NCBI GenBank assembly: GCA_044892525.1
Contig: CM097885.1
Coordinates: forward strand, 215,636,001 to 215,700,000
DNA length: 64,000 bases
Origin: Schmidtea polychroa
Taxonomy: Eukaryota
Direction: 5' to 3'
The position numbers and the translations under genes are program-made. Under the pieces are notes generated by a model. The model saw nothing but the letters and a program-made list of their open reading frames with translations. It did no database searches and was not told where the DNA came from. This document shows positions 13,401 to 64,000 of this stretch, piece after piece. The first letter of the stretch is position 1. The number at the start of each line of letters is the position of its first letter.

Positions 13401-14178
13401 GAAGCTTTTAGAACGGAAGAGTGGACCACATCCGGCATTATCGAATGTCTGAAAACAGTGTTTACGCGCTTCGGTATCCCTGAATATGTCGTAACAGATA
13501 AGACACCGGAGTTCACATCTAACGAATTGATGTCTTGGTTAGAGAACCAAGGAACCCGTAAAATGGAATCTGCACCATACTTTCCAATGGCAAATGGTAG
13601 AGCTGAACGAGCAGTTCAAACAATCAAGACGGGTATAAAATGTTGAAAGTTAAGTCAATGCTATACTGAATTTGACGAGTTTCTTCAAAAGATGCTATTC
13701 TATCAAAAGATATCTGCTGATTTTGAAGGTAAGCCCCCATCAGAAATGATTTTTGTGAGACTAATACGCAGACCGATAATACCTCCATTCCAACAAGGCG
13801 AAGTTGTGGACTACAAATCTGGCTTACTAATGACACCTCTTGTCAGACCTTTCTTATGCCAAAGGGCAGGAATTCATCATGGGTAATCTCAGAATATGAC
13901 TACAACCCGATCATGAAATTAGCAAGTAACAACCAACTATCTCCAAAGAGGCTAAATGAGAAAATGGAGAAGAAAATTCCGTTATCACTAGATGAAACGC
14001 CAGACATGAACGATCAGACAGAAGAAGTTATACCCATTGCCTCTCAAAACGAGCTTCAAAAGATCAATCAAATTTGTAGACTTCCGCAAAGAAATCAATA
14101 TTATTAAAATTGTTTTAATAAACTTATGTAATAGAAGAATAAAATTTTGAAATAGACTTATTATTCAATTCACTTCAA
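10491..14178 (+). mobile_element. Ty3/Gypsy LTR retrotransposon, frameshifted (non-functional)
   Basis: Gag fragments 10719-11191; protease DTGADVS (11245..11613); RT 11755-12140 with YQDD; RNase H 12518..13081; integrase 13038..13646 (PR-RT-RH-INT order). Direct repeats 10491-10580 and 14089-14178 with a TG...CA core, and PBS-like TGGCGCC at 10581. Confidence 0.93.
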
Positions 14179-19700: not shown

Positions 19701-22700
19701 TACTGATGGAACATAATATCCCAATAATTAACACTATTAGGACATATAGGTCCCATTTTTATTTTTGGAAATAAAACAACTCATAAAAACTATAGCTGCA
19801 CACTAAATAAGTAAAATAAAATTATAAATAGCTTATTTGGCAATTCCGAGCACAGCACATATAAAAACACAGTTAGTAATAAGCGTGACACGTGTCTACT
19901 GTTTGTTAGCAACATCTAGACTGACAAAATTTTATAGAAAAGAAAAAAAGCAGACAGCAAACAGCAATAAAGCAGACAGGTTTGGATTTGTTTACAAGCC
20001 TATGACGGTACAGTACTAAAATCCCAGATCCCAATGCATTTGTAAGCATTTAAATTATTTTAGTAATTATTAGAAATTCTCTGGGACAATATGTCCCTAC
20101 AGTATTGAAAGGGTTAAAGTACTATTATTTTTCATGGGATATTCCGGGTACTTATTGAACACACCACGTATTAAGTAATTAATACAAATACGACACTGCA
20201 TTGTATGAAAATTCAATCAATGGTAAAGAATTAACAAAATTGAAATTTATTTTTGATTTTATAAATTTGTGTAATTAGAAATTTGTTGTATTAAAATATT
20301 TATTTATAAATTTATTTTCAATTTTTTGATAAGTTCTCATAAAATAAGTTTCCTAAAATGCTCCGAAATGTATCCCGAGTACATTTGCTTGAAAGAACTA
20401 ATTCTTTAAAACTTATAACAGTCAGTTACAATTATAACGCAAATATTTTCTAAAAACTGATTTTTAAATAACTAAAGTTCAAATATAAAAGATTTTAAAT
20501 AATTGAACTTTAATAGCATAAATGTTGCACATAAAATAATTGTGAAACACCATTGATCATATCAATATAAATAGATTGGATATAACAATGTTTTAGTGTC
20601 AGATTTATAACTGATTATTCAATACGAACAAATTTTTCTTCGACTTTCTCACTATCAAGTATAACTAATACTGGAAATCATCGTGAAATATTTCAAATTA
20701 TTTATAATATCATGTATACATTTGAATGTCACAATTTCCTTCAAATAATATATTGCTGACGATCGGATCATTGGTAAAATCAGATAATGACACAAATTTG
20801 GATTTTTATTTGCTCGATTTATTCTGATGCGACGGCGACAATCAATAAACACAAAATTTTAATATTTTCCACCAGATTTAATTTGGATATATTTACATAT
20901 TTATACTTGTGGTTCAATGAGAAAATCTATCAAAAAATTAGAAGAGATTATTATCACGAATATAAACTATCTATCTAAGATAAATTCGTATAGAATTGAT
21001 ATAGAATTTGGTTAATTACATCCTAATTTTATATTTTAAGTACAATGACAAAAATATAAATTATAAAGTGAAAGATTGTTAAGTCAAATTTTAAATAGGA
21101 ATCTATTTGTATTATAGAAAGATAATTTGGATAAAAGTAAAATTAAAACAAAATAGATTAAAATTTTATTTAATTTGAAATTTAAACTATAGACCAAAAT
21201 TTTAGGGAAGATTTGATATTATCTGACAGATAGCTAGTCAGACCATGACTAGGTGAATTAAAATATTGTTACGTAACTATATTATCAAATGCAACAAGAA
21301 TCAAAATTATGTCTGAATTGCTGCATTAATAAAAAATATGTAATTCAAGACAAATTTTTGAATACATCTTATCAAATAACTTACAAATAGGGCGTATGAG
21401 CAACTCATATCGTCACTGTATCACCAAATATGTTCAAACATTACAATGACATCCGATTGCGATAAATAATTAAATAGAATCAAATGGTTTTTTGGTTTTC
21501 GGATGACTAACTGAATATAATAGTTAATTTTTGATCTCTATATATTGTATTGTATTGTCTGTATTGTACTGTAAATCAATCAGAAATTCAAAACGAACAA
21601 AATTATCTTTGAGTAAAATCATAAGACAAAAGAGACTACCAAATTTAACTGAAAGCCGAATCGGAAATTTTAATAAGTCTTGACTTTTAAGACATTGATT
21701 CCTTTCTAATAACATCCAATTTCGGGAGGCAATTTAGATTATTTTGGTTTCATATGAATAAAATAAAGTTTTGACAATCAATTTAAATATTTAATAATAA
21801 TGTAAACCAGATCCTATATTGGATAAGCTAAGTTTTGATACTTTACTTTTTACAATAAACAGAAAACCTTAGTATATGAATGTAATCATCATTACATATG
21901 AAAGCTGTCTGTCTTTCTGCCTTTTTGGCACTATGCATCTGCAAAAATATGCTAAGAAAGTTTTGACGGGTTAATCATAGTGATATTATATTTCGAAAAA
22001 CATCAACCCAAAATTTTAAAATTAAAATTCAATAATTGGTTGATAATCATAAAAGCAGCAATTGTTGGCTTCATACTTCTCCGATTGAATCGACGTTTGG
22101 AAGAACCATAAATTTTTCCACCACTTTGTTAACCCTTTCAACACTGAATTTTATTTCTTCAGAAATTGATTAATTTTTTATAATAAAACTATTTGTTACT
22201 GAACTATTTGTTAGAACTTTGTAGAAGACTTTCTTCCACCAATAAGGCGACCTTCTATTCAGGTCGTAAACGGCCACAAGTTGGTCACAGAGGTCTACAC
22301 CGCCCATTTTCTCATTATAAAAAAGATGACATAGAAACAATTTTTCAAAAATGTTTGGGATATAAAATATCCCAGGAATGTTGTAAGGGTTAAGGGAATC
22401 TTGGTATGTTAAGGAATCCTTTATCTTTGTCAACAGATAAGAGGCAGGTTCGTTCTGTTTGATACGACCAACACAGTAAAAACTCTGACTCCAAATAAAA
22501 ACGCAACAGCCCGACAAAGATGAAAGCTCAAAAATGTGGGTGGCTTCCTGAAATTTGACGCAATAATATTGACCCAGAAATGGACAATACTTTTCCATTT
22601 TAAGTACTGGCTTAGAAATTATAACCCAGAGTAACACAGGATCAAAAGATGATTACTGATACTCTGTAAAAAAAATAAAAAAAAACATTTTTGTACCCGC

Positions 22701-36303: not shown

Positions 36304-39257
36304 CAGTTGCGGATTTAAATTTTGGTGCGTGGGGGGCGAGGAAAATTTTCAGGGGGCGCCACAAATTATGAAGATGGTACTACTTATTTTCGCGAGTATT
36401 GAGTGAATACTAATATTATTAAAAAGCATTATATTCAGTAAATTTATTCTAGTAAATTTATTGATGTAACAAACATACAAGTTTTTTTATTATTTAAATT
36501 GCTTCCTGCGTGATTTCATTGAAGCAAAACGATTTATAGTCGATTCAAAGTCAATGTTCTCAGCCAGTTCGCGTTCTATTGAAATTAATGCTAATCCAGA
36601 CAGACGTTCGTTTGTCATTGTTGATCGCAAATAATTTTTGATGATTTTCAGTCTACTGAAACTTCTTTCAGCAGTAGCAGATGTAAGAGTCAAGTATATT
36701 TTATAAAGAATTGCCAAATTGAGAAGTCCTGGTGCCATCTGTTTTTCAACCAAGAAAGGCAGCACCTCTTTAAGTTGTAGTTCACAAGATAGTAATGGGC
36801 GTATTGATGCATACACGTATATGAAATTATCATATTCTAGGATTGCTTCTTCAATATTAATATCATTTTTGTAAATGTCGCATAAATTTTGAAAAGATTC
36901 TTTATTTTCTTCTGATATTTGTGATGGATCAAGACAGGAGAATAAAGCAACAGTGTTTTGAAAATCATTAAAACGTTCATCTAGTTGTGTTACAAGTGTA
37001 TCCAAGACAGTGAAATACGTTTCACATTTGAAGCGTGTAGTTGGATCATTAACCCTTTCATCTCTGTTAAGTTCACCTGCCATGCGTTTCCTTTTTGCAA
37101 TTCGCTGTTCTTTAAATTCTGTTTCAACATCTAGTAAGGAACAATTTTTGATAATAAATGATTTTACAGCAACATTTAGACTTTCAAAAGCTTTATCACT
37201 TCTCATATCAGCAAACTTATTTCTGGAAACATAAATCAATTGTTTTGCAAAAGCAATATCAATGTCCTTTCGTTGCAAACAGTTTGATAACACAAAGATA
37301 TATTCTAACAGCTTTTGTAGAAATAGCTTCAGAAAAACAAAAGAATATTTTGTTATCAAAATAGATAGTCCCATAGCTTCTGCTCTGACACTTCCTTTGT
37401 GTTCTTTTGATTCATTAAAATTTATATCTTCTAGAGTAGATATAATAGAGGAGAATGATCCAACAACTGCATCAACTGCATGCTTTAGGCTTGCCCATCT
37501 TGTATCAGAAAGTCGTTTTAGAGTATCTACTGTCGATTCATATCGAGACTTCTGATGTTCTTCGAGAATATGTAGTCATGGTAGACTTGATGTAAGGAAA
37601 GTATACAACTTTTCTGTTGTACCAAAAAACAACTGAACATCACTGTTAAGAGACATTGCTTCAATAGTCACCAAATTCAATGCATGAGAACAACAGTGAA
37701 CAAGATGGCATTTGGTGAAAGTGTCTTTATATTAGTTTGAAGACCATTTTTAATCCCAGACATCACAGAGGCACCATCATATGCCTGTCAAAGTGTAATG
37801 TCAATGTTTCGCTTTTGTAACTATGTTAATAATATATCAGAAAATGCTGCAGCATTACTGTTTTCCAACGTGTAGAAGCCTATAAATCGTTCAACAACTT
37901 GTCCTGATTTTAACACTAATCTTAAAGAAACTGACATCTGATCAACTCTGGATATATCAATTGTTGAATCAACAATTAGAGAAAAGAATTGTGCAGACCT
38001 AACTTCATTATCAATATTTGCGGATAATTCTGAGGGAAGTGATTGAATTAGGTCATTTTGTACATCATGACATAAATAAAGTTCATTTTTCTTTTCAAAC
38101 TTTAGATGATTGTCCAAAGTGGAATCATATTTAGCCAATAAAAATAGCAATTCACGAAAATTTCCAGTATTACTACACCTGTCAGAGCCAGAATGTTCTC
38201 TGTGTCCTCTAAATGGCAAACCTTGTTTTGCTAAAAACAACGTTGCATCTACCATTCGTTTCAAAACTTCTCTATTTTTTTCCCCTTGATAACGCTCCTG
38301 ACTGATCAAACCAAACATCACAGTTTTATCATTTGAAATGCGATAATTAGCCAGCAAATATTGACATATTGCACTTTGATGTTGATTGGAAGTTTCATGT
38401 TTAACGATTTTTTCCATGCCTTTTTTTCAGCTATAAACTCCAAAATTTGGGTCGGATCATTCCTTGTTATAATTTTCAATTTTACAATCAGTGAATAACC
38501 AGCAAACTTGGCAATGCATTTTTTGATTTGTTGGTGAATAGACAAGCCAATTTCTTTCCTCCTTCATACTACCTTTTCCAAAATATTTTGTGTACCAAGA
38601 AATTTGAAACTTGCGCCCCAATTCATCTGTCGGAAATTGAAATGGTTCATTGAGTCCAGGTTGACATGGTCCGATTTCAAACAATTTTCGTATCAGTTTC
38701 GAGCTTATGCTTGTATTAATGTAGAGTCCTGGATCTGTAGGAAAGTCGGATTGAGGAAGAAGTGGTTCTTGTAAAATATCTGAAGCAAGTTGTTTTTCCA
38801 CTGTATCAAATTCTGAATCACCCTGATTATGTTTCAAGCCCTGAGCAGGTAATGTTACCGTCTCAATATTCTCTGCACATGAATGTATAGCTGGGTGTTG
38901 TTCATCAACTACTTCAACAACTATCTTCAACAAGAACTTCAGATGATGTTTCTGTCTCAGCAGGCTCAGCATAGGAACTCGAATGCGTAGATGGGTGTTG
39001 ATCATCAAATACATGCTCATTTTTAGCAGAAACTTCAGTTGATTGAATTACTGGCAGTATACAAGCTTAAAAACTTCAAACAGTCGCTCTTCACTGGAGC
39101 TATGTAATATTATTAATATGATGCAGCATAACAGCTGGAGTTGCTTAAATCCAGTTGAACTTTGTACACAGACAAAACTTTAATAAGAGAAAAAATTCAT
39201 AAAATTATCTTGGGGGGGGGGCGACTCGCCCTCATGCCTATAGTAAATCCGCTACTG
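36304..39257 (-). mobile_element. Full-length hAT transposon, 2954 bp, with a frameshifted transposase
   Basis: 14-bp TIRs CAGT(T/A)GCGGATTTA and a perfect 8-bp TSD TGTTGGAG. Transposase pieces 38457..39020, 37821..38417 (FFSLIVDSTIDISRVDQMS) and 36490..37374 (SATAERSFSRLKIIKNYLRSTMTNERLSGLALISIE). Confidence 0.96.
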
Positions 39258-44021: not shown

Positions 44022-44905
44022 GTGGTCCCAAAGTCGTTGTTGATTTTTGATGCAATGGCTGCACACAAAGAGCCGTCTGTTCACAAACAGATCAATAAGA
44101 CCGGTGCGCACATTGCTGTCATTCCGGGTGGCTTAACATGTAAGCTTCAGCCACTTGACATCGCTGTTAATCATCCATTCAAGTGTTTTGTCCGCAACGA
44201 ATGGGAGAAATGGATGAGTGAAGGAGAACACACATTCACACCATCAGGAAAGCAGAGACGTGCTACGTACATTGAAGTATGCAAATGGGTTCTGGCAGCG
44301 TGGCAGCAAATCAGCACTGAAACTATTCGCAATGGTTTCAAGAAGGCTGGCCTGCTAAGAGTTAGTGAAGCTAATTCAGAGCCAGCAGTAGAGGGCAGCT
44401 TCATTTCGGCCGACAATGTGAACGCTGATACTGACGATGATTATAGTGATGAAGAGTCGATTTATGAAGAGTCCCTTATTTGAAGAAGACAGTGAATATG
44501 ATACGAGTTTCGATGGCTTCACTAACTATAGCGAGGACAGTGACATTAGTGAGACTGGCGATTGATTGCGGCTGTATTGCATGCATTGTAGTCTATACGT
44601 TTCGACACTACTGGTATCGGCAAATTAGTTTAGTTGCTTACCTACTTGTTACATTTGATTACTAGTATATTAAAGATTCTCTGCCGCATCGGTACTATTT
44701 GTTTTCTTGAGGTTTATAATGAGATGTTCATAAAGCTTTCCAATGTACATTTCACAACTACACAGCGAACTATAGGAGGTTTCCGTTATGCTATGTTTAT
44801 GAGTAAAATAAATTTTGTAAACCCCGCACCTTTGTATACCCCGCACTGCTGCCATTCGTTTGGAAAAACTTGTATAACCCGCGGGTTATATGCGCGAAAA
44901 TACGG
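44022..44905 (+). mobile_element. 5'-truncated pogo-family transposon
   Basis: LIFDAMAAH...IPGGLTCKLQPLDIAVNHPFK...WVLAAW...IRNGFKKAG (pogo DDE C-terminus); right TIR ...GCGCGAAAATACGG followed by TA. Confidence 0.88.
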
Positions 44906-45780: not shown

Positions 45781-47780
45781 CTGAAAACAAATACCACAAA
45801 ATCAATCATAAAATAAAAATTTCATTCTCATACATAGTAAAATCGTGAATTCTGAGTTACATCTGACATGTTACGAGAATATTTCGAAAATTTTCTTTTA
45901 GTTAATTTTTCTGCATCTACAAAAAATTACAATAATTTAAAATTTCTTTAAAAATTTTAAAATATAATTTACAGATTCTGAGAAAAATAAGTTTCCTAGT
46001 ATTACTGAATTATTACCGAAAAATTTTAAATATCTTTCATGTTTACATTCCAATCAAAAGAAGAAAAATAAGATCATTAACTAATGTTTTTTCAAAAGAA
46101 TTTATATTGGATGCTTCTTTTCAACATCATTGTAACCGTATTGTCCCAAAAACTTTGTCCCAAATGGATGATTGAATGGCACTTTTTTATATTTATATGA
46201 CGAATAATATAAGTTTAAATTATAAGTGACCAAAATATTAGTTATATTCAATAATTTATCATAACATCAATATTTTAAAGTTTTTTTTTGAAATATTACT
46301 AAAAGAAAGAAGTTTTTGTTGAAGGTTGTGAGTCTTTTTTATTCAATATTTTGCATACCTTATTTTATTTGACAAGATTAATACATATCCCATAAAAATA
46401 GAAAAATGATAAGATAAGAATTTATATTGAAATTTGAAACAAACACTTAATGAAACCAAGTAAAAGAGTACCAATAAGACTTAAATCCATTAAATGAATA
46501 TAGCAGTTTGATTTACTTACATATTTCGTTAAGAATTTCAAACGGCATTTTACTCGGTTTACATTTTTGTGATTTTACAGAATAGATGCAATAATTACTT
46601 ACAGTACTGTATATATTTTACAACAAAAAATTAAAATTCGTGGCTTACCGTGGCTTAAATGTAGAAATATATTTTTTAGAGTAGATATTGCAGGATATAA
46701 AACTGCAAAACTTATATCAAGTGTTTATACTTTGACTGTTATAACTGTTAAATTTCCGAAGAAATTAAAAAAATTGAATATAGGACTATTAATATCATAA
46801 TTTGTCTAAAACAATTTATAGACTAACTTATTGGTTAGAAAAAGTCAATATATAAATTCTAATTTACTAATAGACATTTTTACATAATATTTTTCTTATA
46901 AAGGAATTTGTGGAAACCATTCAAAAATTTAATTGAAAATACTTTTATTTAAAGTGCACTGAAAAGGAAATTTATTCTTAAGCACAAAAGCAATGTAACA
47001 CGCCTACGTGGTTTACATCACATCCAAACATACAAGATAAAATAGTAACTTTTAATATACCTATATTAATTTCTACATATTTTCCATTGAAATTTCAATA
47101 GTGTAAGAAAATTGTGTTTTACTTGATAATATAAAAAACTTAAATAGAAAATTAAAAATATAGTTATAATATTAATCCAAATGAGATAAGCAAACTAAAT
47201 TAAATAGTGGGAAATCGGAAAGAGTTTAGTAAGGATATTTAAATAATATAATTCGTCGGATTAAAGGCTAGCAGATTTATAAATAAATTAATTAACAAAT
47301 AAATAATTGATCCCTTAATTTTTGAAATTATGAATATATATTTTGAGTAAAATGTGTGAATCTTCCTTTATAAATGAAATATTATTTATTATGCAAGAGT
47401 ATTTGTTTATAGTATTTTATAAAACAAAATAAATGAATTTTTTATTAACCTATAACAAGAAATATTAATTTTGTTGATAAAAAACTAATACCACACATAT
47501 TTATGTACCTGTTTTTAATTGATTTGAAATGAAAAGACAAAATCCCGGGGTTGAAAATTTTCGGGATTTTTTGCAAACCCTAATCAATAGTGAGACGGTT
47601 TAAATTTAAAAATAACGACTATCAAACTTTTATAACCTGAACATACAATTGGAATAACAAAGCTATTATAAGTTTATCAGTCAAATCTTTTATTTTGAAC
47701 ATTGATCTTCATTTTTTTTAATGACTAGATCATATCTTTCTAAACATGTTATTTATATTAGTAGGTACAAGTGCGCTGCA

Positions 47781-48077
47781 TGACTCATCGTTGAACAAAG
47801 ACATATGACTCATCGATGACTCATAACAAAGAACATGACTCATACCCCACCCCGGTGAGTCATAAATGACGTCATCAATGACTCATCATACATATGACTC
47901 ATCCTGGTGACTCATCGCGCATGACTCACCCGGGTGACTCATCGCGCATGACTCATCCGGGTGACTCGTCACACATGACTCGTCCTAATGAGTCATCGCG
48001 CATGACTCATCCGGGTGACTCGTCACACATGACTCGTCCTAATGAGTCATCGCGCATGACTCATTAAGGGTGACTCA
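47781..48077. promoter_or_regulatory. Array of about 16 AP-1 consensus sites TGA(C/G)TCA, plus one CRE (TGACGTCA) and four TGACTCG variants
   Basis: Motifs counted directly; partly organised as 54-bp tandem units. Regulatory function is inferred. Confidence 0.65.
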
Positions 48078-48583
48078 TTTCAAATTTAAATTTTAAATTC
48101 AAATTTTAAAAGGGTCAAATGATGTCAAACTTCATGGGTATCATTCGAAAGGTCTTGAAGAGCTCTATCTAATGGTCATACCCTTGAAGGTTTAAGATGT
48201 ATCCTTAACTTTCAAAAGGTCGAACACCTTCAACATTTTAAAAACTATATAATATAGGTATCATTCTAAAGGTAATTCAATATGTTGTTCAATAGTCTAA
48301 ACTACCGCAACGTAATAATATTGTTAACAAATTGAAAGTAATATTAACAAAGACAATGCAGTTTTAATGCAATATTAACAAAGACCCTTCAATCCATGTG
48401 CATAATCAAACAATTACTACTACTACTACTACTGCTCNNNNNNNNNNNNNNNNNNNNNNNNNNNNNNNNNNNNNNNNNNNNNNNNNNNNNNNNNNNNNNN
48501 NNNNNNNNNNNNNNNNNNNNNNNNNNNNNNNNNNNNNNNNNNNNNNNNNNNNNNNNNNNNNNNNNNNNNNNNNNNNNNATTTA

Positions 48584-49211: not shown

Positions 49212-49738
49212 ATGTCGCAACCTAATTTTATCGAAAACTTGTTAAATGAGGTCGTCAATACAGGCATTACGGAAAGCCTCAGTTACCTAATTAATCGTAC
49301 TGAAGAAATCATCAAGGGGAATCATATTGATTACCAAAACATGCTGGATATGGAGTGTCTGGAGACGAAGAAGTTCTACTTCAATAGAATATTCAATTGT
49401 CTATTCGATGACGAAATGAAGTGGACCCGAATAATTGTAGGGTTCACTTATATGAAGATTATAATTGAAAAAAGTTCATGGGACTCACAACACTATTATC
49501 AATGGTCTCAAGAAGTAATACTTTTATAATCTATATTTTAATAATATTGATTTTTTAGATAATCAAATCTAAATTTACTCCATGGATAGAAGCCAATGGC
49601 GGATGGGGTACATTGAAAAAACTCGCCCGAAATGCTAAGGAAATCGATCAGTATAAAAGAAGATTTAAAAACTTTATTAAATTTTCAACAGGTGTCGCTA
49701 TTTTCTATGTAATTTCTAGATTTTTAAATAAAAATTGA
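49212..49738 (+). CDS. Bcl-2-family protein, 160 aa, two exons (49212-49514, 49559-49738)
   Basis: BH1-like FDDEMKWTRIIVGF in exon 1. A 44-nt phase-0 GTAATA...TTTTAG intron leads in frame to BH2 PWIEANGGWG and a C-terminal tail anchor FSTGVAIFYVISRFLNKN. Confidence 0.85.
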
Positions 49739-49817
49739 TATAGTTATGTTGTTTTATTTTTTAAATAAATATATAAGAAATATTAAGAAAGTATAAGAAA
49801 TAATTAACTAAAATTTA

Positions 49818-50362: not shown

Positions 50363-50740
50363 CTAAATAGGAGAATACACATCATTATTATCAACTTTAT
50401 ATCCCTGGATTGCAATTGTTATATACCAATTTTCGTTTTCTTTGAAACTGATTTCATCAAAAGAATCATAAAATCTTGCATATCTATTGTTGAACCATGC
50501 ATGTTGATTACATGCTAGATTTGAATTTAACCGTTTGAAAACATCATCAATAGTTTTAACATCTATCATTGAAAGCGTGCCGGATAAGAATTGAAATTGA
50601 GTTGGAATTAGCTTGACCGGAGCAACCAATTTCATATTGATTTCTTCTTTTAAAAAATACATTTTGTAGTTGTGGAACATTTGAACCGGTTGTACAAGTT
50701 CTTCTTTCGGTTTTTCGGTGCCTGAAATATTCTTTGTCAT
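50363..50740 (-). CDS. Hypothetical protein, 125 aa (possibly OB-fold/SSB-like; may be truncated by a TAG)
   Basis: ATG-led ORF with TATAAA 41 nt upstream. The frame stays open 11 codons past the TAG (SPI*KIMSARLSQLF). The fold assignment is speculative. Confidence 0.55.
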   Translation of the reverse strand: MTKNISGTEKPKEELVQPVQMFHNYKMYFLKEEINMKLVAPVKLIPTQFQFLSGTLSMIDVKTIDDVFKRLNSNLACNQHAWFNNRYARFYDSFDEISFKENENWYITIAIQGYKVDNNDVYSPI

Positions 50741-51183: not shown

Positions 51184-51598
51184 TTAATGCACAAAGTTCT
51201 TGATATAGTGGAAATCACGAAGAGTTTTAACCAAAACCCATTCTACATATCGCTGATATCTAGCTTTGCAGCAGGAACAGCTATTGTAACATAAATATTC
51301 TGGATCCATATGTTTAATTGTTCGATTTATCTTCACATCCCACATAAATTGATGGAAAATCTCGAACATCCATATCCCCGTCGCATTGAACACCAAATCG
51401 GGGATTAATTCTGCAGGCTTGTTGTATACTGCTGCATTGATTTCTGGATAATAGAATGCTAACTTCTTTAGCATGACTGCAGCATATTCTTCTGAAAAAT
51501 ATAATATTTAAATTTGTAAACAAAAAATAAAAAAAGAAAAATTTACCATAATCATCTATTTCTTTAATTAAACGAGCTGCACTTGGAATTTTGTACAT
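51184..51598 (-). CDS. Hypothetical Cys-containing protein, 119 aa, two exons (51598-51547, 51491-51184)
   Basis: A 55-nt GTAAAT...TTTCAG intron joins ORFs 51314..51598 and 51184..51474 in frame (IDDY|EEYAAVMLKK); contains a CYNSCSCC cluster. Confidence 0.75.
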
Positions 51599-51659: not shown

Positions 51660-52097
51660 TTAGAAATCGACCAATAAAAATATCTCATTCCGAACATTGT
51701 TAACAAATTCCATATACTCCAAATTTCTCACCCCAAGCATGACAACCTTTCCACTAGCAAACACATTGACACATATAGGGTTATATTTTAATAGTCTTAG
51801 TGCCGGAAACAATTCCGGTTCAAACATACAATCACATTTTCTCGACATGTTATATAGATTGATACTATGTCCCATATCCATAGTGACGGTAATTGATTGG
51901 ATTTTTATATTATTGATTCGATATTGTAGTTTATTAATATCCAAGGGTTCCTTACATCCCATGATTCTGCATTTGCCAGTCTTGAAAAATATTATTGGAT
52001 ATTTCCCGCTTCTATCGACAATTTGCTGTGGTTTTCCTGATGGAAACCTCATTTTCGAAACATCTAAATCTCCTCGATAATTTATATTTGCTAACAT
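51660..52097 (-). CDS. Compact TATA-box-binding-protein-like protein, 145 aa
   Basis: Two TBP-like repeats: IIFFKTGKCRIMGCK, and IKIQSITVTMDMGHSINL...FEPELFPAL...VNVFASGKVVMLGVR (compare TBP YEPELFPGL and IFVSGKVVLTGAK). Confidence 0.85.
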   Translation of the reverse strand: MLANINYRGDLDVSKMRFPSGKPQQIVDRSGKYPIIFFKTGKCRIMGCKEPLDINKLQYRINNIKIQSITVTMDMGHSINLYNMSRKCDCMFEPELFPALRLLKYNPICVNVFASGKVVMLGVRNLEYMEFVNNVRNEIFLLVDF

Positions 52098-52204
52098 TAT
52101 TAATTCATTTATGAAAATTTCTCTTTATATACAATTTTAGCACGAGTTCATTAAATCACCGAATATAAACAAATATATGTATATATATATTTATAAAATT
52201 TGAA

Positions 52205-52828
52205 ATGGAATTAAGAAATGATGCAGTATACCAAATCGTTGGTCCGAGTGGTAGCGGGAAAACACTGTTTGTTTGTAAATTATTACAATCAAAATTATTT
52301 AAGTCAAAATTTAATAAAATTTATTGGCATAGGGGAGCAGATGATGAAAGCGGAATGACACAAGATCAGTTTTGTAAAATCAAAATGACAATCATAAAAG
52401 GTTTCGATAAAAACTGGTCATCTAGATTACGACAGGGTGATGTGATTATTATTGATGATTTGTATCAAGAAGCAAATAAAGAAAAGGATTTTAATAATTT
52501 ATTTACAAAAATTAGTAGACATAAAGGTGTCACTGTAATTTTTATCACTCAAAATCTTTTTCATCAAGGTGGATCTCATCGAACTCGTAATTTGAATGTT
52601 CAATATTTAGTTATTTTCAAGAACCCTAGAGATGCAACAGTGATTGATTTTCTTGCACGTCAAGCATACCCTAACAATCGAAATTTCTTAATGAATGCAT
52701 TTGCCGATGCAACAAAATCCCCACATGGATATATTTTTCTAGATTTTACACAACAATGTCTTGATGAATTACGAGTAAGAACAGATATATTTAACAAGGA
52801 AGGAGCTATAGTATATAAACAAAGTTAA
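52205..52828 (+). CDS. A32/FtsK-like genome-packaging ATPase, 207 aa
   Basis: Walker A GPSGSGKT, Walker B VIIIDD, SRH arginine motif and FITQN. Confidence 0.93.
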   Translation: MELRNDAVYQIVGPSGSGKTLFVCKLLQSKLFKSKFNKIYWHRGADDESGMTQDQFCKIKMTIIKGFDKNWSSRLRQGDVIIIDDLYQEANKEKDFNNLFTKISRHKGVTVIFITQNLFHQGGSHRTRNLNVQYLVIFKNPRDATVIDFLARQAYPNNRNFLMNAFADATKSPHGYIFLDFTQQCLDELRVRTDIFNKEGAIVYKQS

Positions 52829-52849: not shown

Positions 52850-53344
52850 ATGTTACTAAAAACTCGTGTAAAGACAACAAAAAGGAAACCTAAAAAATTG
52901 TCTAAAAAAGTTAAGATTCCACCAAAAACTAGTTTCACACCATCGAAAAAATTGCTTATTGATAATATTCCACCGAGTAATCGTATTCCACCGAGTAATC
53001 ATACTAATCGTAATAATTCTCATCGTAGTTTTCCGTTTTTCATTGCATTACTTAAGGCTCCCAGTATGAGAAGAATGAATATTTTGCAGTCTTTTCCAAA
53101 CTATGTTATTGATTATTTACTTGATATTTTAATTAAAGTTGTTAAAGGTAAATTCCGTATAAGTACATCAAATAAAACGATTTTGAACAGGCACAAGAAA
53201 CCATTATTATCACTAGTAAATACAAAAAATAAAAAACGTATGCGTAAAATCATATATAAACAACAAGGAGGTTTCATTGCAGCCTTGATACCAATAGCAT
53301 TATCTTTATTAGGAGGTGCAGGGTTATTAGGGAGATCATCATAA
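52850..53344 (+). CDS. Basic virion core / pX-like protein, 164 aa
   Basis: Lys/Arg-rich N-terminus; QQGG-F protease-site-like motif before a hydrophobic C-terminal helix IAALIPIALSLLGG; typical Polinton position next to the ATPase. Confidence 0.7.
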   Translation: MLLKTRVKTTKRKPKKLSKKVKIPPKTSFTPSKKLLIDNIPPSNRIPPSNHTNRNNSHRSFPFFIALLKAPSMRRMNILQSFPNYVIDYLLDILIKVVKGKFRISTSNKTILNRHKKPLLSLVNTKNKKRMRKIIYKQQGGFIAALIPIALSLLGGAGLLGRSS

Positions 53345-53399
53345 ACAATGGGCCAATCATTACCAAATCTTAATTTGAATTTTAAGTCTTCCTGTTGTA

Positions 53400-53787
53400 A
53401 TGGAGAAAATTTGGACGAACCCGGAAGACGAAGCAGGTTTCGGTGGAGTGGCAAAATTAAAGAAAAGAGTTCCGAATTCGAAAAAAGAAACCCAGAAGTG
53501 GTTATCAGATCAACTCGCGTACAGTTTGAACAAACCAATGCAGAAAATATTTCCAACAAGAGCGTATAAAACATATGGAATAAATGATTTATGGCAAATG
53601 GATTTGATGGAGATGATACCTTATTCAAAAATTAACAAAGGGTATAAATATATTTTAACATGTATTGATGTATTCAGCAGGTTTGCACGAGCAATACCAG
53701 TCAAGGCAAAATCTTCAGATGAAATGTCCAAAGCTATTAATATTTTATTTAAAAATGGACATCCTAATAATTTACAAACGGATTTAG

Positions 53788-53830
<43 letters not shown>

Positions 53831-54470
53831 GATTATTATTATTTTAGGTAAAGAATTCTACAACAGTAAAGTTAAGCAAATCCTCGATAAACTGAAAATA
53901 AATCACTATTCGGTACATTCTCAATACAAAGCTGCTCATGTTGAAAGATTTAACAGAACCTTGAGAGAGAGATTAACGAAATTGTTCGTGTATCAAGGTA
54001 ATAAGAAATGGGTATTGGTTTTACCAAAAATTATAACCAGTTATAATAATTCATCACATCGAGGACTTAATGGATTGAGACCAGTTGATGTAAAATCTAA
54101 AATATTTGCTCAACAAGATGTAACAAAAACCAAACCGAAATATAAAGTGGGTGATCATGTTAGAATTAGTAAAATTAGTGCATCACCATTTATTAAAAAT
54201 TTTGATACAAATTGGAGTGATGAAGTCTTTGTAATTTCGAAAATAAATACTAGCCAGAACCCCGTAATGTATGTCATCAAAGATTCTGATAATGACATTG
54301 TACAAGGGAAATTTTATGAGCAAGAATTACAAGTCATTCCTCCCCCAAAAGTATTTAGAATTCAAAAAATATTGAAAACTAAAATGGTAGGTAAGGATAA
54401 ACAATACTATGTCAAATGGCATGGATATAAAAACCCATCATGGATATCGTCTCGAGACCTCGTAAAATGA
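53400..54470 (+). CDS. Retroviral-type DDE integrase with C-terminal chromodomain-like region, 336 aa after removing intron 53788-53847
   Basis: WQMDL, IDVFSRF, LQTDLG|KEFYN and VERFNRTL, plus QYYVKWHGY. The poly-Ile insert in the ORF track is a 60-nt GT-AG intron. Confidence 0.93.
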
Positions 54471-55489
54471 ATTTTTATATTATTTTGCCGAGCAATAGTT
54501 GTCCGAATATACATCCAGAAAACACTGCCAGTAAATTTATGGTCAATTTCCAAAATCCGATTTATTTAAATGGTGAGTGGGAAGTGGCTCTCCTCGACTT
54601 TACATTTGTGTACAATCTCTTTCCAATTTATAGTAAAGCTAAAATTGAATATAAAAAGAAAGAGACGCAAAGAAATATCTCTTTTACCATTGATAATGTA
54701 GAAGATCGAATTGATATATCTAATCCATCAGATTCAATTGTCAAAATGTATATTGATCGTCAATATTTAATAGTTGAATGTAAATATCATCCCTTTACTA
54801 TAAAATTTGATAGTTTAGCAATGGCAAAACGATTGGAATTAACAAGTCAGAGTAATAGAAATCATACTAATATATTCCAAGTACTACGGCCGGGATTTAC
54901 CAAAGTAGCAGCGCGATTTGAAACAATTTCAATGAAAGTTGAGTTTGAAGGTGAAACTGAAAATACATATACGTTTAATGAGAATTTATATATATCTAAA
55001 TTGGAGGAATTACAGTCATATTTAATTCAAAATTGTGGATCAATATTTAAATCATTGGAATTAGTAGACAATACTTTGTTCAAATTCAGTTTGAATACTG
55101 ATATTACTGAAATCACTTTTGATAAAAATCTAATAAAAACATTAGGATTACCAAAAGAAACATATAGTCAAGATGGAAAATTAAATGTAGGTATGAATAA
55201 ACCGAAAATAATTAAACTTCATCATCAAATGTTCATCTATACTAATATTATTGAACCCATAATTGTTGGTGATTCCGCTGTTCCTCTATTGAAATCTATT
55301 TGGGTTGAGAAAAATGAACAAGATGATGTTGTACAAATCAATGTAGAAAATCCCATGTATTTGCATGTTTCAACATCATGTATAAACAATATAGAAATAA
55401 ATATAAGAGATGATTCTGGTCAATTAATCGAATTTGCAAAAGATTCAAAAACTCATTTGACACTACATTTTCGTAAAGTAGATGGCTAA
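54467..55489 (+). CDS. Minor capsid protein (penton-like), about 340 aa
   Basis: N-terminal FYIILPSNS...WEVAL and C-terminal IYTNIIEPIIVGD...PLL...INNIEINIRDDSG...LHFR match the Polinton minor capsid. The start at 54467 overlaps the integrase stop (ATGA). Confidence 0.88.
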   Translation: MNFYIILPSNSCPNIHPENTASKFMVNFQNPIYLNGEWEVALLDFTFVYNLFPIYSKAKIEYKKKETQRNISFTIDNVEDRIDISNPSDSIVKMYIDRQYLIVECKYHPFTIKFDSLAMAKRLELTSQSNRNHTNIFQVLRPGFTKVAARFETISMKVEFEGETENTYTFNENLYISKLEELQSYLIQNCGSIFKSLELVDNTLFKFSLNTDITEITFDKNLIKTLGLPKETYSQDGKLNVGMNKPKIIKLHHQMFIYTNIIEPIIVGDSAVPLLKSIWVEKNEQDDVVQINVENPMYLHVSTSCINNIEINIRDDSGQLIEFAKDSKTHLTLHFRKVDG

Positions 55490-55886
55490 TTCCGATATTA
55501 TTAGTATGTATAGTGGTAGCCAAAGTGGTGGCGAATTACCATATTTTATTGGTAAACAGTACGGAAGTGGGTGGTTGAGAACAATTGGTAGATTTGCGTT
55601 ACCAATTCTGAAACGTATTGGTAATTTCGGCATGAAAACTGCAAAAGATGTAATTATGAATGACAAGAAAATATTACCATCGTTAAAATCAAATGCAATT
55701 GCTGAAATAAGTAAAGTATTACCTGGTATGTTTAATAATAATAAAACTGAACCAGCACCGATACCAGTTGGACCTAAACGTAAATTTGAAAGTGAAATTA
55801 AAACAAGTATGGGAACTAAACGCAAGAGAGGGAGAAGGCATATAAACAAACGAATGAAAGGACACGGAACCATATTTGAAGAATGA
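55482..55886 (+). CDS. pVII-like core protein, 134 aa
   Basis: QSGG and QYGSG glycine motifs, an amphipathic helix and a basic C-terminus; lies immediately before the major capsid gene. Confidence 0.75.
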   Translation: MANSDIISMYSGSQSGGELPYFIGKQYGSGWLRTIGRFALPILKRIGNFGMKTAKDVIMNDKKILPSLKSNAIAEISKVLPGMFNNNKTEPAPIPVGPKRKFESEIKTSMGTKRKRGRRHINKRMKGHGTIFEE

Positions 55887-57144: not shown

Positions 57145-57529
57145 ATGGAGTAAGATTTTTATTTTATAATTTTATTTATTTATTAGTTCTATTCAGGTGT
57201 TTCGAATTGGTACTCAATTATTGGGAAACCAATTTCTTGGAGTTTATCCACTGAATAAAATCCCTTATTTAGATGTTAATCAAGCAATTATTGTCAATAC
57301 TCATACATCTAGTTTAGGAGGTGAACATTGGATTGCTGTTTACAATAAACCAAACCGAGTATATGCATTCGATCCCTTTGGATATTATTACCCAAATTTA
57401 TTAATTAGTAAATTGCAAACTATTGGTAAACCTATTGTATATAATCGAACTCGATATCAACATCCATTTTCAATTACTTGTGGCCAGCATTGTCTTGCAT
57501 GGTTGTTATCAATGTATAATTTTGTTTAA
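57145..57529 (+). CDS. Adenain-like cysteine (maturation) protease, 115 aa, two exons (57145-57149, 57187-57529)
   Basis: GEHW, FDPFG, YQ and TCGQHC catalytic motifs. The ORF has no ATG unless the 37-nt GTAAGA...TTAG intron is removed, which gives MDSIQVFRIG. Confidence 0.85.
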
Positions 57530-59167: not shown

Positions 59168-59186
59168 ATGAATAAATATGATGATG

Positions 59187-59239
<53 letters not shown>

Positions 59240-59494
59240 TTAAATTTTAGCTTAGTTTTTTATTTAGGTCGATTTTATACATCCTACTGTAATAATACTT
59301 TTCATAATAACTGTCATTGTCTTATGGAAAAGTATTATTCGCATAAATATAATGGTATCATCTACCAGATATGTCCTACATGCAAAACATTAGACACAAA
59401 AACATATTTCGAATTTTACAAAAAACATTGCAATCATTTAAGACAATTTACAGGTTCGAAAAAAGATTTATTCATCATATTAGTAGGTAGTTAG
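59168..59494 (+). CDS. Hypothetical Cys/His-rich protein with an (AAT)n insert; last of about 3 tandem decaying copies
   Basis: C-x4-H-x2-CHC, CPTC and CNH pattern. Flanking blocks (GAATTTTAGGAGA.CATGAATAAATATG; CTTAGTTTT) repeat at about 58700-58840. Confidence 0.4.
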
Positions 59495-60930: not shown

Positions 60931-63900
60931 TTAGTCCTCATCGGACAAAATAACGTCATCGATATCGATGTCATCTTCTTCATTAAATTCTTCCTCATCT
61001 TCTCCATCATTTTCTCCATCATTTTCTGAAACATCTTCTCCATCATTTTCTGAAACATTTTCTGCGACAATTTCTCCAACATTTTCTCCAATATTTAATT
61101 CACTTAATCTTACATGCCCATATGCAAGACTAGCGTTTTTCCCCACCCAAACCCTTTTGTCATCTTTGTTTGTTAGTGCTATTTTTGTGTTTTTAATTGT
61201 AAAAATTTGATGATTTTTGCTTGTTATTTTAGTCTGAGGAACCGAAAAAATCTGGTTAGTGTTATAACAATCCAGGTATGACTGATGTTTTATGTCACTA
61301 CCTTTCAATGTTACACCTTTAGCCTTTTTTGTTTCCTCATCACCCAACAAGCTATAACATTTAGGTCTAAGAAAAACCCACTCCTTATATTTAAGACCTT
61401 TATTCTCGTCTTTGAACTTTCCAATGACTGAATCAAGGTTCTTACTATATAAGGAATGACAACTATTGTAATTGGAAGTATCTAATAAATTATCTCGAAT
61501 CATTGCAGGTAAAAGAACCTCAAGTTTGCAGTTAATGACTTCGAGGAAAAAAGAATCTGTATCACCTGCAACGATATTAATTTTACAATTAAACTCATTG
61601 CGAAATGATTCCAGATCCTTATATTGCAATTCATACATTCTAAGTTTAGATAGATCAAGTACAGATTGACCAATGTAACTCGGTCTATCTAAACATATAG
61701 AATCTGAATTCAATAGTGTTGCAATTAAATTATCAGCTATTTTAATAGATTTTTTAAAAGTCGGTTTTGACGAATATTTAACTAATTTACCTGCAGTTGT
61801 ACAAAGACGAAGATTCATTCTTCTCTTTAAATTTTCAACTGTTTTGCCGTATAAACTGTTATTTAGCAATTTATAATAATTTTTATCTAAGTTATTTACG
61901 CTTTTTGATCTTAATTCGGTATTTGTATCTATATATTTTTTAAAAATTGGTGATTGCTTAAATCTTACACCTCTATTTACACGTGTTACTTTAACACCAA
62001 GTTCTAAATATAATTTTAATAATCTCCAATGAATAACATAATTAGATTTTGGAAGATGAGTTAATAATAATTTTTCAACCTTAGACCCAGCAGGTTTCAT
62101 TTTTTCAGCAGCTACAGGGAAATCATCCAACTTATCATGAAGCTCAGAAGGAATTACAAGATCAACTTCAAGTGTGTATCCATAAGACAAAGATTCAAGA
62201 TTTAAATTCCTACATTCATCCATTATTTTATCAAATCCATTAAGAACCCAACAAAATTCTCCACAAGGTAATGATTGACTTAAAGCCCACCCATAAAGAT
62301 TATTAATATCTATATAAAGTAACTCGGTGTTCTCGTCGGTATTTACGTAATGCTTATTCACAAAAGTAAGACCGCCTCTTATTCCACCCTCATAAAAGCT
62401 AAACATTTCGTTTTCAGTTATGAGTTCAATTGGTTCATTTAAAGACATTAATGCAGAAGACCACGACATGCCTGGAATTCCGAAATAATTCAAAGGCTCT
62501 AATCTATTGTGAGCAATTGATTTCAACCTAAACTGATGAAAGAAATCAGCCAAAAGAAAACAATCAAGTTTTAGGTAGATCATCATATAATCTAATAAAG
62601 TTCTGCAATTAGATTCTACCCAAATCTCCTGAGCTTTTTCATACTCAAGCTCAGTGACACCCTCCCAGATTGGTGGTAATTCATACGTAGTTTGTAGAAC
62701 ATCTAAAGAAGTGGCGAAATTATAAGGGAAGATTCCTTTTTCACATACTATGGTGCCAGAAAAAGCAGAATTAGTAAAAGGCAAAGAATTCAAAGTTTTG
62801 ACTGCTTTAGCCAAAGAATCATTGACAAATTGATATGAATCAATGAATCTTAGGCTAATTTTGCCTAAATGAGCAATCAAAGATATAAATTTTTCCGTAG
62901 TTATTGGGATGCACCCTAAATTCCAATTTTTAAATTTATTTAATCCATATTTAAGTATATGATGCATATCGTATCCCTTCAAGTTGTGAAATACGATGGG
63001 CAAAATTTTATTTATTTTTCTATTTACGTTACATGTGCTACAAGCTGCACCCAAGTATTTGCCCGTAAAATGATCGTGATCTCTAACAGGATCCACGATA
63101 GATTTCAAACAAAGATAACAAACCGTTGAATTAATGAATTGTTGTTGCTCATTTTTAGTTAATTTAATCATTGGTTTCCTACCCATTTTATAATAAAAAG
63201 GAAGAACCTTATTTAATGCTATATCCTCTATAGCACTTAAAAAACTCTCGACGCAATCTAAACCTATGAACTGCTGATAAGATTTAGATCCGTCAAAGTT
63301 ATTTACTAGTAAAAGACCAGCAGATATTGGCATGTGTCGCTGAAAATGATCATTATCACAAGGTAAAATAGCCTCAAAATCGGCATAAACTACGAAAGGA
63401 GGAGTTACTGTTTTCGACCAGTCAGTAAACTGTAAGAATTTATTTTGAGGGAAAGTATAAAGAGTAGTTCCTAATTGCTTGCGTTTGCATAATATTTCAT
63501 GTTTTTCTAGTGCGTTTCTATTGTTAAAACCATTCAAACAACGATGACACCATATTGATCGTATGCGTGTAGGACAACTAGTGTTTATGCTGCAATTCAG
63601 TAACCTATTTAAATTGCTTATAGCAATGTAATGGAAATTGTTCCCTTTATTTAATAAAAGTAAATTAATTACTGTTCCATTTAAAACTTTTGAACGATGT
63701 ATAATGTCTAAATGGGGGTGTTTTAAAACGTAATTATCTATTAATTGTTTGTTATGGTCATAAGTAAAAACATTAATTATTAAACCAGGATTTTTGGCCT
63801 CGAATTTTCTAATATCTTTTAATTTCATTGGTAAGTCTAATGGATTATATATTAACTCAGATAAATTATAACTGGATGTTCTATTTCTATATTGGCTAAT

Positions 63901-64000
63901 AACCTCATCATATTTTAAAATAGCTAAAATGCTATATAAAAAACATGAATCGTCGGTGTTTTTTACATTAATTAAACAATATTTATTTTTTAGACAAGTA
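60931..64000 (-). CDS. Protein-primed family B DNA polymerase (5' end outside the window, more than 1020 aa)
   Basis: Exo I YADFE, Exo II HNLKGYD, Exo III YLKLD, Pol A DINNLY, Pol B KLLNNSLYGK and Pol C GDTDS. The frame is open from 63999 to the stop at 60931, so the ORF-track start at 63828 is internal. Confidence 0.96.
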   Translation of the reverse strand, partial: TCLKNKYCLINVKNTDDSCFLYSILAILKYDEVISQYRNRTSSYNLSELIYNPLDLPMKLKDIRKFEAKNPGLIINVFTYDHNKQLIDNYVLKHPHLDIIHRSKVLNGTVINLLLLNKGNNFHYIAISNLNRLLNCSINTSCPTRIRSIWCHRCLNGFNNRNALEKHEILCKRKQLGTTLYTFPQNKFLQFTDWSKTVTPPFVVYADFEAILPCDNDHFQRHMPISAGLLLVNNFDGSKSYQQFIGLDCVESFLSAIEDIALNKVLPFYYKMGRKPMIKLTKNEQQQFINSTVCYLCLKSIVDPVRDHDHFTGKYLGAACSTCNVNRKINKILPIVFHNLKGYDMHHILKYGLNKFKNWNLGCIPITTEKFISLIAHLGKISLRFIDSYQFVNDSLAKAVKTLNSLPFTNSAFSGTIVCEKGIFPYNFATSLDVLQTTYELPPIWEGVTELEYEKAQEIWVESNCRTLLDYMMIYLKLDCFLLADFFHQFRLKSIAHNRLEPLNYFGIPGMSWSSALMSLNEPIELITENEMFSFYEGGIRGGLTFVNKHYVNTDENTELLYIDINNLYGWALSQSLPCGEFCWVLNGFDKIMDECRNLNLESLSYGYTLEVDLVIPSELHDKLDDFPVAAEKMKPAGSKVEKLLLTHLPKSNYVIHWRLLKLYLELGVKVTRVNRGVRFKQSPIFKKYIDTNTELRSKSVNNLDKNYYKLLNNSLYGKTVENLKRRMNLRLCTTAGKLVKYSSKPTFKKSIKIADNLIATLLNSDSICLDRPSYIGQSVLDLSKLRMYELQYKDLESFRNEFNCKINIVAGDTDSFFLEVINCKLEVLLPAMIRDNLLDTSNYNSCHSLYSKNLDSVIGKFKDENKGLKYKEWVFLRPKCYSLLGDEETKKAKGVTLKGSDIKHQSYLDCYNTNQIFSVPQTKITSKNHQIFTIKNTKIALTNKDDKRVWVGKNASLAYGHVRLSELNIGENVGEIVAENVSENDGEDVSENDGENDGEDEEEFNEEDDIDIDDVILSDED

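Follow-up and report, generated by a model that had tools for sequence, protein, structure and literature searches.

A 145-residue TATA-binding protein encoded by a Polinton/Maverick element of Schmidtea polychroa, and a candidate late promoter box on its packaging and putative capsid genes

The element and its genes

The stretch of DNA analysed here, referred to as the window, comprises 64,000 nucleotides of the Schmidtea polychroa genome (GCA_044892525.1, contig CM097885.1, positions 215,636,001 to 215,700,000 of the forward strand), and it holds an element that is a Polinton/Maverick, with a core of protein-primed family B DNA polymerase (pPolB), rve integrase and A32-type packaging ATPase, and with a small gene for a TATA-binding protein (TBP) fold, hereafter mini-TBP (Table 1). 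A preliminary description had pointed to TBP homologues of large DNA viruses, a class to which this element does not belong. It had also seen no polymerase in the part of the element within the window, which holds for RNA polymerase and fails for DNA polymerase: apart from pPolB (60931-64000, E 1.3e-31), no large ORF that might encode an RNA polymerase is present in the ORF lists of the window element or of the elements L146 and L131.

Table 1. Features of the element and candidate promoter boxes in the window
Feature	Position	Strand	Basis and remarks
Left terminal repeat	47759..48100	+	starts near AGTAG; rich in TGACTCA words; matches repeat pairs elsewhere
Bcl-2-like gene	49212..49529	+	Pfam E 2.4e-4, below cut-off; relative in L146 E 1.1e-7, above cut-off
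T7 gp2.5-like OB-fold ssDNA-binding protein (SSB)	50363..50740	-	model of relative L104, pLDDT 89.5
Accessory gene, probably two exons (ORFs 51314-51598, 51184-51474)	51184..51598	-	ORF list, sequence
Element-encoded TBP-fold protein (mini-TBP), 145 aa, R44/M46/N111 type	51660..52097	-	Pfam, structure match, model, alignment
Canonical TATA box TATATAAA, putative early promoter	52124..52131	-	class statistics; 34 nt before ATG of TBP-like gene
TATAAACA box, non-coding, putative late promoter	52164..52171	+	motif statistics; about 40 nt before ATPase ATG
A32-type packaging ATPase	52205..52828	+	Pfam Pox_A32 E 1.4e-6; head-to-head with TBP-like gene, 107-bp gap
ATAAACA box inside 3' end of ATPase	52815..52821	+	35 nt before ORF 52850
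Conserved basic ORF, putative virion core protein	52850..53344	+	label by position; no Pfam match
ATAAACA box	53256..53262	+	92 nt before small ORF 53348
ATAAACA box	53341..53347	+	59 nt before integrase ATG
rve integrase with chromodomain	53400..54470	+	Pfam rve E 9.7e-8
ATAAACA box in 3' end of integrase	54397..54403	+	ahead of putative minor capsid gene
Putative minor capsid protein, 349 aa	54440..55489	+	position, size, conservation; no Pfam match
ATAAACA box	55382..55388	+	100 nt before ORF 55482
Conserved small ORF	55482..55886	+	3' end holds box of next gene
ATAAACA box, encoded ATA AAC	55842..55848	+	41 nt before putative major capsid gene
Putative major capsid protein, 408 aa	55883..57109	+	position, size, conservation; no Pfam match
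Protein-primed family B DNA polymerase	60931..64000	-	Pfam DNA_pol_B_2 E 1.3e-31; 1374-aa frame starts about 1 kb beyond window

Elsewhere in the same genome, six oppositely oriented pairs of terminal repeats lie 15-17 kb apart, and a 1.5-kb terminal repeat is present in L146/L131; the right terminal repeat of the window copy was not found up to 3.4 kb beyond the window. The left repeat contains, besides its many TGACTCA words, one TGACGTCA, which we take to be AP-1-like and CRE-like sites, and it may act as a stress-responsive enhancer. The ORF at 50363 was considered as a transcription partner of mini-TBP and rejected on account of its T7 gp2.5-like SSB fold, the top four rows for the model of its relative being SSB-type chains of viruses or phages at Z 6.5-7.4; the window copy is 14 residues shorter at its end than its relatives. 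The ORF that follows the putative major capsid counterpart in the related element L110 matches Peptidase_C5 (E 1.3e-7), its window counterpart being assigned by eye.

Several further observations concern the element and its surroundings. In the integrase, an (ATT)n run at 53786-53850 that keeps the frame and is bounded by GT..AG is probably an intron, and short AT-rich GT..AG introns are likewise apparent in the protease-like gene (about 57150-57200), in the gene at 51184-51598 (51480-51550) and in the SSB-like gene of L031 (about 1310-1350). A 108-aa ORF (59168-59494, plus strand) is 49% identical over 72 residues to the Cys-rich N-terminus of PolB and is apparently a duplicated fragment. Directly to the right of the window lies a second Polinton of another family in opposite orientation (L031, L032). 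This neighbour has a TBP-like gene of its own, 60% identical, and, judging by the sequence, carries the minor-capsid-like gene in a second copy. A related element carries a gene for a ubiquitin-conjugating enzyme (L049:225-719, Pfam UQ_con E 1.6e-12). The host part of the window (11245-13646, 22170-22598, 36490-39020, 44055-44483) holds ordinary transposon remains, namely LTR retroelement protease, reverse transcriptase and integrase pieces, an IS4/piggyBac-type piece, a hAT element and a DDE_1 piece. Contigs of run X2 carry A21 and T17 tails at 49746 and 51152, 14 nt past AATAAA signals at 49727 (+) and 51171 (-), the pattern that polyadenylated transcripts of the Bcl-2-like gene and of the gene at 51184-51598 would give, whichever copy of the element they came from. 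The mini-TBP ORF is covered by contigs of runs X1 and X3, whose RNA origin is a guess and which were not counted as evidence; none of the runs recorded as RNA contained the mini-TBP stretch.

A minimal TBP saddle

The protein had been described beforehand, from its letters alone, as a minimal TBP of 145 aa, and this identification has stood up. Residues 63-127 match Pfam TBP (PF00352) at E 1.4e-15 and 57.3 bits (cut-off 22.9), and each of the 35 solved structures matched by sequence is a TBP or a TBP fusion. An AlphaFold model built with a 70-sequence alignment as input reached pLDDT 96.2, and a Foldseek search with it gave 44 matches at E <= 0.001, those listed all being TBP chains. When the model was compared with yeast TBP 66-240 by VIA-align, 145 of 145 residues were aligned at Z 13.3 and rmsd 2.4, while the best non-TBP row reached only Z 6.3. 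Since the alignment to yeast TBP runs over the full length, both lobes are present, and the model confirms the predicted fold as a two-lobed TBP saddle with a continuous beta-sheet.

Only the N-lobe is shortened. Its strands are kept, but no helix of at least four residues appears in the model at 1-61, and helices H1 and H2 of canonical TBP are absent. In 11 of 11 canonical-type rows the N4-F38 spacing is 46-47 residues, as opposed to 34 in mini-TBP, and the G47-Q67 spacing is 33-34 residues (11 rows), as opposed to 20, so that 13 residues are missing at each of two sites. Hidden upstream coding for helix H1 was ruled out, because the frame is closed by a stop 10 codons ahead of the ATG, which makes an N-terminal extension impossible in this exon, and because relatives start at the same place.

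The arrangement of the intercalating phenylalanines was also read correctly at first sight. With yeast numbering anchored by mini-TBP 60-127 on yeast 151-221 and mapped via a plant TBP, the ELFP and VFASG motifs of the C-terminal repeat keep both of their residues (F97 = F190, F113 = F207), and the shortened N-terminal repeat keeps the Phe of FFKTG (F38 = F116). Three of the four canonical residues are thus retained, the F99 position being occupied by Pro or Lys according to a register that is uncertain by a few residues. With one of the four gone, DNA bending by mini-TBP may be weak.

Family, selection and phylogeny

TBP-like genes of this kind are numerous in the genome. The 150 best of 4162 candidates are 91-100% identical to mini-TBP and all have open frames, giving at least 150 intact copies, although this estimate of intactness is biased upward because the 150 are the best-scoring matches; there are at least five families of the gene, at 52-62% identity to mini-TBP. 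When 20 loci were chosen from the 97 found by a capsid query of the same genome, 18 carried a TBP-like gene, 15 of them beside the ATPase and 3, of a rearranged family, on the opposite arm beyond PolB, while the remaining 2 are disrupted copies; in 16 of these 18 TBP matches a single frame spans 90% or more of the profile. A word search gave 78 relatives, and a profile search gave 62 clusters at E 1e-30 and 697 at E 1e-10, the latter including canonical TBPs. A Polinton core gene was found in 22 of 59 metagenome loci with a TBP-like gene (core gene or SSB in 31), and in 15 of the 20 loci of at least 3 kb (core gene or SSB in 18). The plasmid search for relatives of mini-TBP returned haloarchaeal TBPs only, and the viral contig scans found no relative of mini-TBP, ATPase or capsid. 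In the search for elements lacking this TBP type, the S. polychroa genome, queried with divergent ATPase and capsid sequences as well as with the PolB family, revealed no clearly separate family, and genome contigs contributed only L110-L113.

It had been proposed beforehand that a neutrally decaying host pseudogene would show itself by a dN/dS near 1 across copies. Over four dS bins the pairwise dN/dS was 0.28, 0.24, 0.39 and 0.23 for 30 unique coding sequences of the genome, and 0.49 (3 pairs), 0.27, 0.23 and 0.33 for 43 others, with pairs that are not independent and with those of dS 0, above 2 or undefined left out. At 0.23-0.39 in the genome itself, these ratios are well below 1, and by this measure the TBP-like gene is under purifying selection. 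In a 25-row tree, for which the tool warns of long branches that bear on the origin of the family, the element TBPs form one clade (100/99) distinct from host TBPs, with the short forms nested (98/99) among forms of 170-190 aa that have longer N-lobe spacings. A tree joining the host paralogues and the element proteins of the same genome in one clade was rejected (p-AU 6e-41), which sets the element proteins apart in the comparison with host paralogues that had been called for. The candidate of a decaying host pseudogene was rejected on the dN/dS values, the intact frames (150 of the 150 best matches; 16 of 18 in the capsid-picked set) and this tree test.

The host itself has at least six TBP-type loci (L092-L097), two of them apparently intronless and divergent. 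Signs of module swapping were also noted: measured by dS, the TBP gene of the window is near that of the commonest family (about 0.19) and the ATPase of the window remote (about 0.84), and other families have an ATPase similar to that of the window, yet TBP alleles just 53-62% identical (L009-L030, L098-L109). A distant Polinton, L112, carries a canonical-type TBP of 184 aa (11568-12122, Pfam E 1.2e-36, both repeats) in which V122, T124 and N159 are kept; this protein falls outside the R/M/N clade and its element counts as one without the ATAAACA box described below, which suggests independent capture of TBP by Polintons.

A remodelled DNA face and conserved TFIIB-contact glutamates

Compared with cellular TBP, mini-TBP carries the changes V71N, V122R, T124M, N159S, V161T, I194R, V203C, L205N and T215L, and among the canonical base-contacting residues (N69, T124, N159 and T215, together with V71, V122, V161 and L205) only N69 is kept. 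In 125 family rows, which were found with a profile rewarding the residues counted and mostly come without known genomic context, the intercalating Phe are present in 118 (F38), 124 (F97) and 123 (F113), R44 (V122) in 118, M46 (T124) in 122, S/T68 (N159) in 124, T/S70 (V161) in 122 and N111 (L205) in 123; canonical rows have mostly V/I, T, N, V and L at the positions of R44, M46, S/T68, T/S70 and N111. R101 (I194) and C109 (V203) occur in 86 and 88 of these same profile-selected rows, and both are commoner in the short members. The acidic stirrup of the C-lobe is kept, with E93 (E186) in 112 and E95 (E188) in 123 of the 125 rows. In cellular TBP, the two stirrup glutamates contact TFIIB, and helix H2 forms most of a basic patch common to TFIIA, TAF1, Brf1/2 and Mot1 (PMC7221094).

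These changes bear on which sequence such a protein might read. The box found ahead of the packaging ATPase, TATAAACA, differs from consensus TATA at one position. Among the Foldseek matches of mini-TBP is 1qn3, a TBP crystallised on a TATA variant of the TATAAACA kind, the C(-25) of which we take to be position 7 of the box. In cellular TBP, a C-G pair in the TATA box clashes with a leucine and flips to the Hoogsteen form (PMC4402545), and the C-lobe has been reported to read the 5' half of the box and the N-lobe the 3' half (PMC1636458). The C of the box sits in the 3' half, the half read by the N-lobe, and the N-lobe is the most remodelled part of mini-TBP; the arginine R44 in place of V122 could favour a C-G pair there.

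Two classes of promoter

There are two promoter classes in the element, one host-type and the other marked by the ATAAACA box. The first is found upstream of the TBP-like genes, where a canonical TATA box occurs in 18 of 42 rows (shuffle 3.9, max 11) and an initiator-like TCA[CT][TA] in 33 of 42 (shuffle 10.3, max 20), with a TATA-to-initiator spacing of 29-32 in 11 of 19; the initiator-like word is found in just 2 of 14 ATPase and 0 of 11 capsid genes. The SSB gene, the Bcl-2-like gene and the gene at 48584 in the window have CCAAT and TATA promoters, while the accessory genes of family L146 gave no match to the TATA pattern used. A second, TATA-less class of TBP-gene promoter was also observed: TTGTTTTA is present in 11 of 42 rows (shuffle mean 0.44, max 3), mostly 43-64 nt before the ATG, and it hardly overlaps with the TATA class (L035, L040, L041, L063, L068, L072, L074, L080 and L083 are among its members). 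It looks much like the candidate late box in inverted orientation, and may be an autoregulatory site or a site for a host factor.

The second class is found on the packaging and putative capsid genes. ATAAACA lies 15-70 nt upstream of the ATG in 13 of 18 non-redundant ATPase rows (shuffle mean 0.5, max 3) and in 9 of 12 capsid rows (shuffle mean 0.4, max 4), and it is found upstream of none of the 42 TBP-like genes. It is the top 7-mer upstream of ATPase and capsid genes, at 22 of 25 vs 0 of 42 TBP genes (Fisher p 8e-15), in a set from which L111 and L112, with another TBP status, and the mis-assigned ATPase rows L113 and L025 were dropped. In the window, seven sense boxes lie each 35-100 nt upstream of ORFs of the cluster. 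Nine long elements with a TBP of the R44/M46/N111 type, four of them from the S. polychroa genome, were scored in the same way, and in 9 of 9 the ATPase-to-capsid cluster has 7-9 sense boxes (expected 1.1-2.3) and 0-2 antisense ones. Two elements with this TBP type have nothing but variant words before the ATPase, L110 (TATAACAC) and L053 (TATAAACG). Where the box falls inside the gene upstream of the capsid, it is encoded ATA AAC in 10 of 10 Ile-Asn cases (codon shares 0.34, 0.22) and once lies in another frame, which indicates that the constraint acts on the DNA.

The link between the box and the TBP type rests in part on a small set of controls. L112, whose TBP is of the canonical type, has a single sense box in the cluster, and L111, an incomplete element without a TBP gene in the part covered, has none; these are two contigs of one bin on a distant ATPase branch, and shared ancestry could therefore explain their lack of the box. 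L084, whose ATPase is about 40% identical and sits on a long branch and which has the box, is the sole element that speaks against this confounding.

An unlikely but not negligible reading of these data is that the box is read by a host factor, either TBP or one of its paralogues taking it as a weak TATA or a forkhead protein, and that the viral TBP is a general, regulator-proof booster at TATA-like promoters. The forkhead consensus RYAAAYA includes ATAAACA, the TATA variant with C(-25) can be bound by wild-type TBP through Hoogsteen pairs, the host has its six or more TBP-type loci with several divergent paralogues, and the control set without this TBP type is tiny (L111, L112). Against this reading, the other forkhead word, GTAAACA, was found in 0 of 18 ATPase and 0 of 12 capsid rows, as was the box in reverse orientation, and the box stands at TATA distance, 30-47 nt before the ATPase ATG, with a T at position -1 in 20 of 23. 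A general booster would need no fixed polar substitutions across its base-reading face, nor would the exclusion of the box from its own promoter (0 of 42) be expected.

A proposed early-to-late switch

As the box stands before the packaging and putative capsid genes but not before the TBP gene, mini-TBP likely switches host Pol II to late genes. The account that we consider probable, though well short of certain, is that mini-TBP is made early from a host-type promoter, binds (T)ATAAACA and recruits host TFIIB and Pol II to the late genes. Redirection of host Pol II to viral promoters was one of two roles suggested in the preliminary description and is the best-supported option, with the amendment that its candidate target is the variant (T)ATAAACA on packaging and putative virion genes instead of an ordinary TATA box. 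Host TFIID would transcribe the TBP, SSB and Bcl-2-like genes at what is presumably an early time; the viral TBP would then bind TATAAACA rather than TATAAAAG, and through its retained glutamates it would bring in host TFIIB and, with it, Pol II. Loss of helix H2 may free the protein from TFIIA, TAF1, Brf1 and Mot1/BTAF1, so that it would be neither evicted nor drawn into TFIID or TFIIIB. Such an escape from TAF1, Brf1 and Mot1 would fit the missing initiator at late promoters.

Host TFIIB is the candidate partner, and no recognisable viral one appears to travel with the elements: a PF00382 scan of the genome gave 32 candidates and 25 matches, vs 2998 candidates for PF00352, and those examined are host BRF1, TFIIB and paralogues. 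The scan covers Pfam-detectable homologues, and several ORFs of the element have no Pfam match. The host also has about 13 clustered, intronless, full-length, divergent TFIIB paralogues of about 301 aa with zinc ribbon and core (C3:38.2-39.1 Mb and C1:23.8-24.2 Mb; L122-L124); three of them were examined and lie outside recognisable Polintons, with PolB fragments 2-4 kb from two.

The same surface features have been weighed for two other roles. The second suggestion of the preliminary description, a dominant-negative for host shut-off, has found no positive support and leaves the box unexplained. As a decoy, the viral TBP would occupy host TATA boxes or titrate TFIIB and be unproductive for want of a TFIIA/TAF surface, and the retained TFIIB-contact glutamates together with the lost helix H2, the site of TFIIA, TAF1, Brf1 and Mot1, would suit such a protein. 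It is nevertheless a doubtful candidate, with little chance of being right: the element-specific box and its link to this TBP type would have no explanation, tight binding to host TATA boxes is at odds with the altered DNA face, shut-off would also strike the accessory genes of the element, whose promoters are of the host TATA type, and the gene is intact in very many chromosomal copies. An architectural role, in which the protein bends DNA for replication, integration or packaging and not for transcription, is highly improbable. In its favour are the frequent placement of the gene next to that of SSB or of the packaging ATPase and the loss of one Phe and of both N-lobe helices, but the TFIIB-contact glutamates are among the most conserved residues, and the candidate sites, instead of lying at the termini, stand on the coding strand just upstream of start codons.

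Returning to the switch of host Pol II by mini-TBP, a broader proposal can be made, on which we are evenly divided. According to it, a widespread Polinton lineage would use a single regulator-proof TBP of 145 aa, much as phages use sigma factors, to read TATAAACA and to load host TFIIB and Pol II with no need of TFIID, TFIIA or another viral activator, which would amount to a true early-to-late programme; the DNA face would have changed first, in members of 170-190 aa, and the N-lobe helices would have been lost later, TBP having been acquired at least twice by Polintons.

Comparison with known systems

Viral TBPs are known from Nucleocytoviricota, herpesviruses and mirusviruses. A switch of the kind proposed here would let Polintons, which lack their own RNA polymerase, control when virion genes are expressed. 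In the literature covered on Polintons/Mavericks together with TBP, TATA or late promoters, which leaves aside most subscription journals and Repbase, neither this TBP family nor the box is described. The element shares pPolB, rve integrase, packaging ATPase, terminal inverted repeats and a Bcl-2 accessory gene with Polintons/Mavericks/adintoviruses and MELD viruses (PMC8502044). In that paper (Starrett et al., 2021; PMC8502044), the label 'TBP' appears in one figure legend and the text offers no analysis, family, structure or promoter motif for it; the supplement searched gave 0 matches to TBP or TATA.

With cellular TBPs, namely eukaryotic TBP/TRF and archaeal TBP, mini-TBP shares the equivalents of F116, F190, F207, N69, P191, E186 and E188, whereas it is only 21-26% identical to them and is without F99, H1 and H2. 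As a natural minimal TBP, it offers a case for DNA bending and TFIIB loading with three Phe and no N-lobe helices. Fold matches among viral proteins (BFVD) are weaker than those to cellular TBP, the best at E 3e-8 and with 12-18% identity in the top rows. Nucleocytoviricota have their own RNA polymerase, unlike the Polintons here, which are 15-17 kb long and without RNA polymerase and Pfam-detectable TFIIB. Their TBPs are likewise virus-encoded and two-lobed, with the Phe signature and no N-lobe basic patch, the absence of which has been proposed to evade Mot1/BTAF1 (PMC7221094). They differ in having diverged at TFIIB-contact positions and in co-evolving with a viral TFIIB (PMC7221094), as opposed to the host-type acidic stirrup kept in mini-TBP.

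An engineered parallel is yeast TBPm3, where changes at I194, V203 and L205 extend the specificity of TBP to TGTA (PMC1636458). All three positions are changed in mini-TBP (R101, C109, N111), but to other residues, and the altered base in the TBPm3 box is the second (PMC1636458), while the candidate box here differs at the seventh. If mini-TBP does read its box, the two would form a compact orthogonal TBP-promoter pair.

A natural counterpart in its DNA face is found among the TBP mimics of beta- and gammaherpesviruses (ORF24/UL87/BcRF1), namely ORF24 of KSHV, in which V122, T124, V161, L205 and L114 are made polar and which reads the variant late box TATTWAA (PMC12529657, Table 1). Both proteins thus have a polar DNA face with V122, V161 and L205 changed and a variant late box, TATTWAA in the one case and TATAAACA in the other, and both would work with host Pol II while early genes have host-type promoters (PMC12529657), a scheme to which genome correlation points in the Polinton. 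There are also clear differences. ORF24, at 752 aa, has an N-terminal domain that binds Rpb1 and a C-terminal one that binds DNA, and it needs five other viral activators (PMC12529657), whereas mini-TBP is a bare 145-aa domain with no recognised viral partner; ORF24 keeps all four Phe and has lost the TFIIB-contact acids (PMC12529657), whereas mini-TBP has three Phe and has kept the acids. A dedicated late box with a matching factor, if true, would be genomic evidence of a viral life cycle of Polintons, and it would represent a third route to the viral use of TBP, beside that of giant viruses with their own TFIIB and that of herpesviruses with their six-protein complex.
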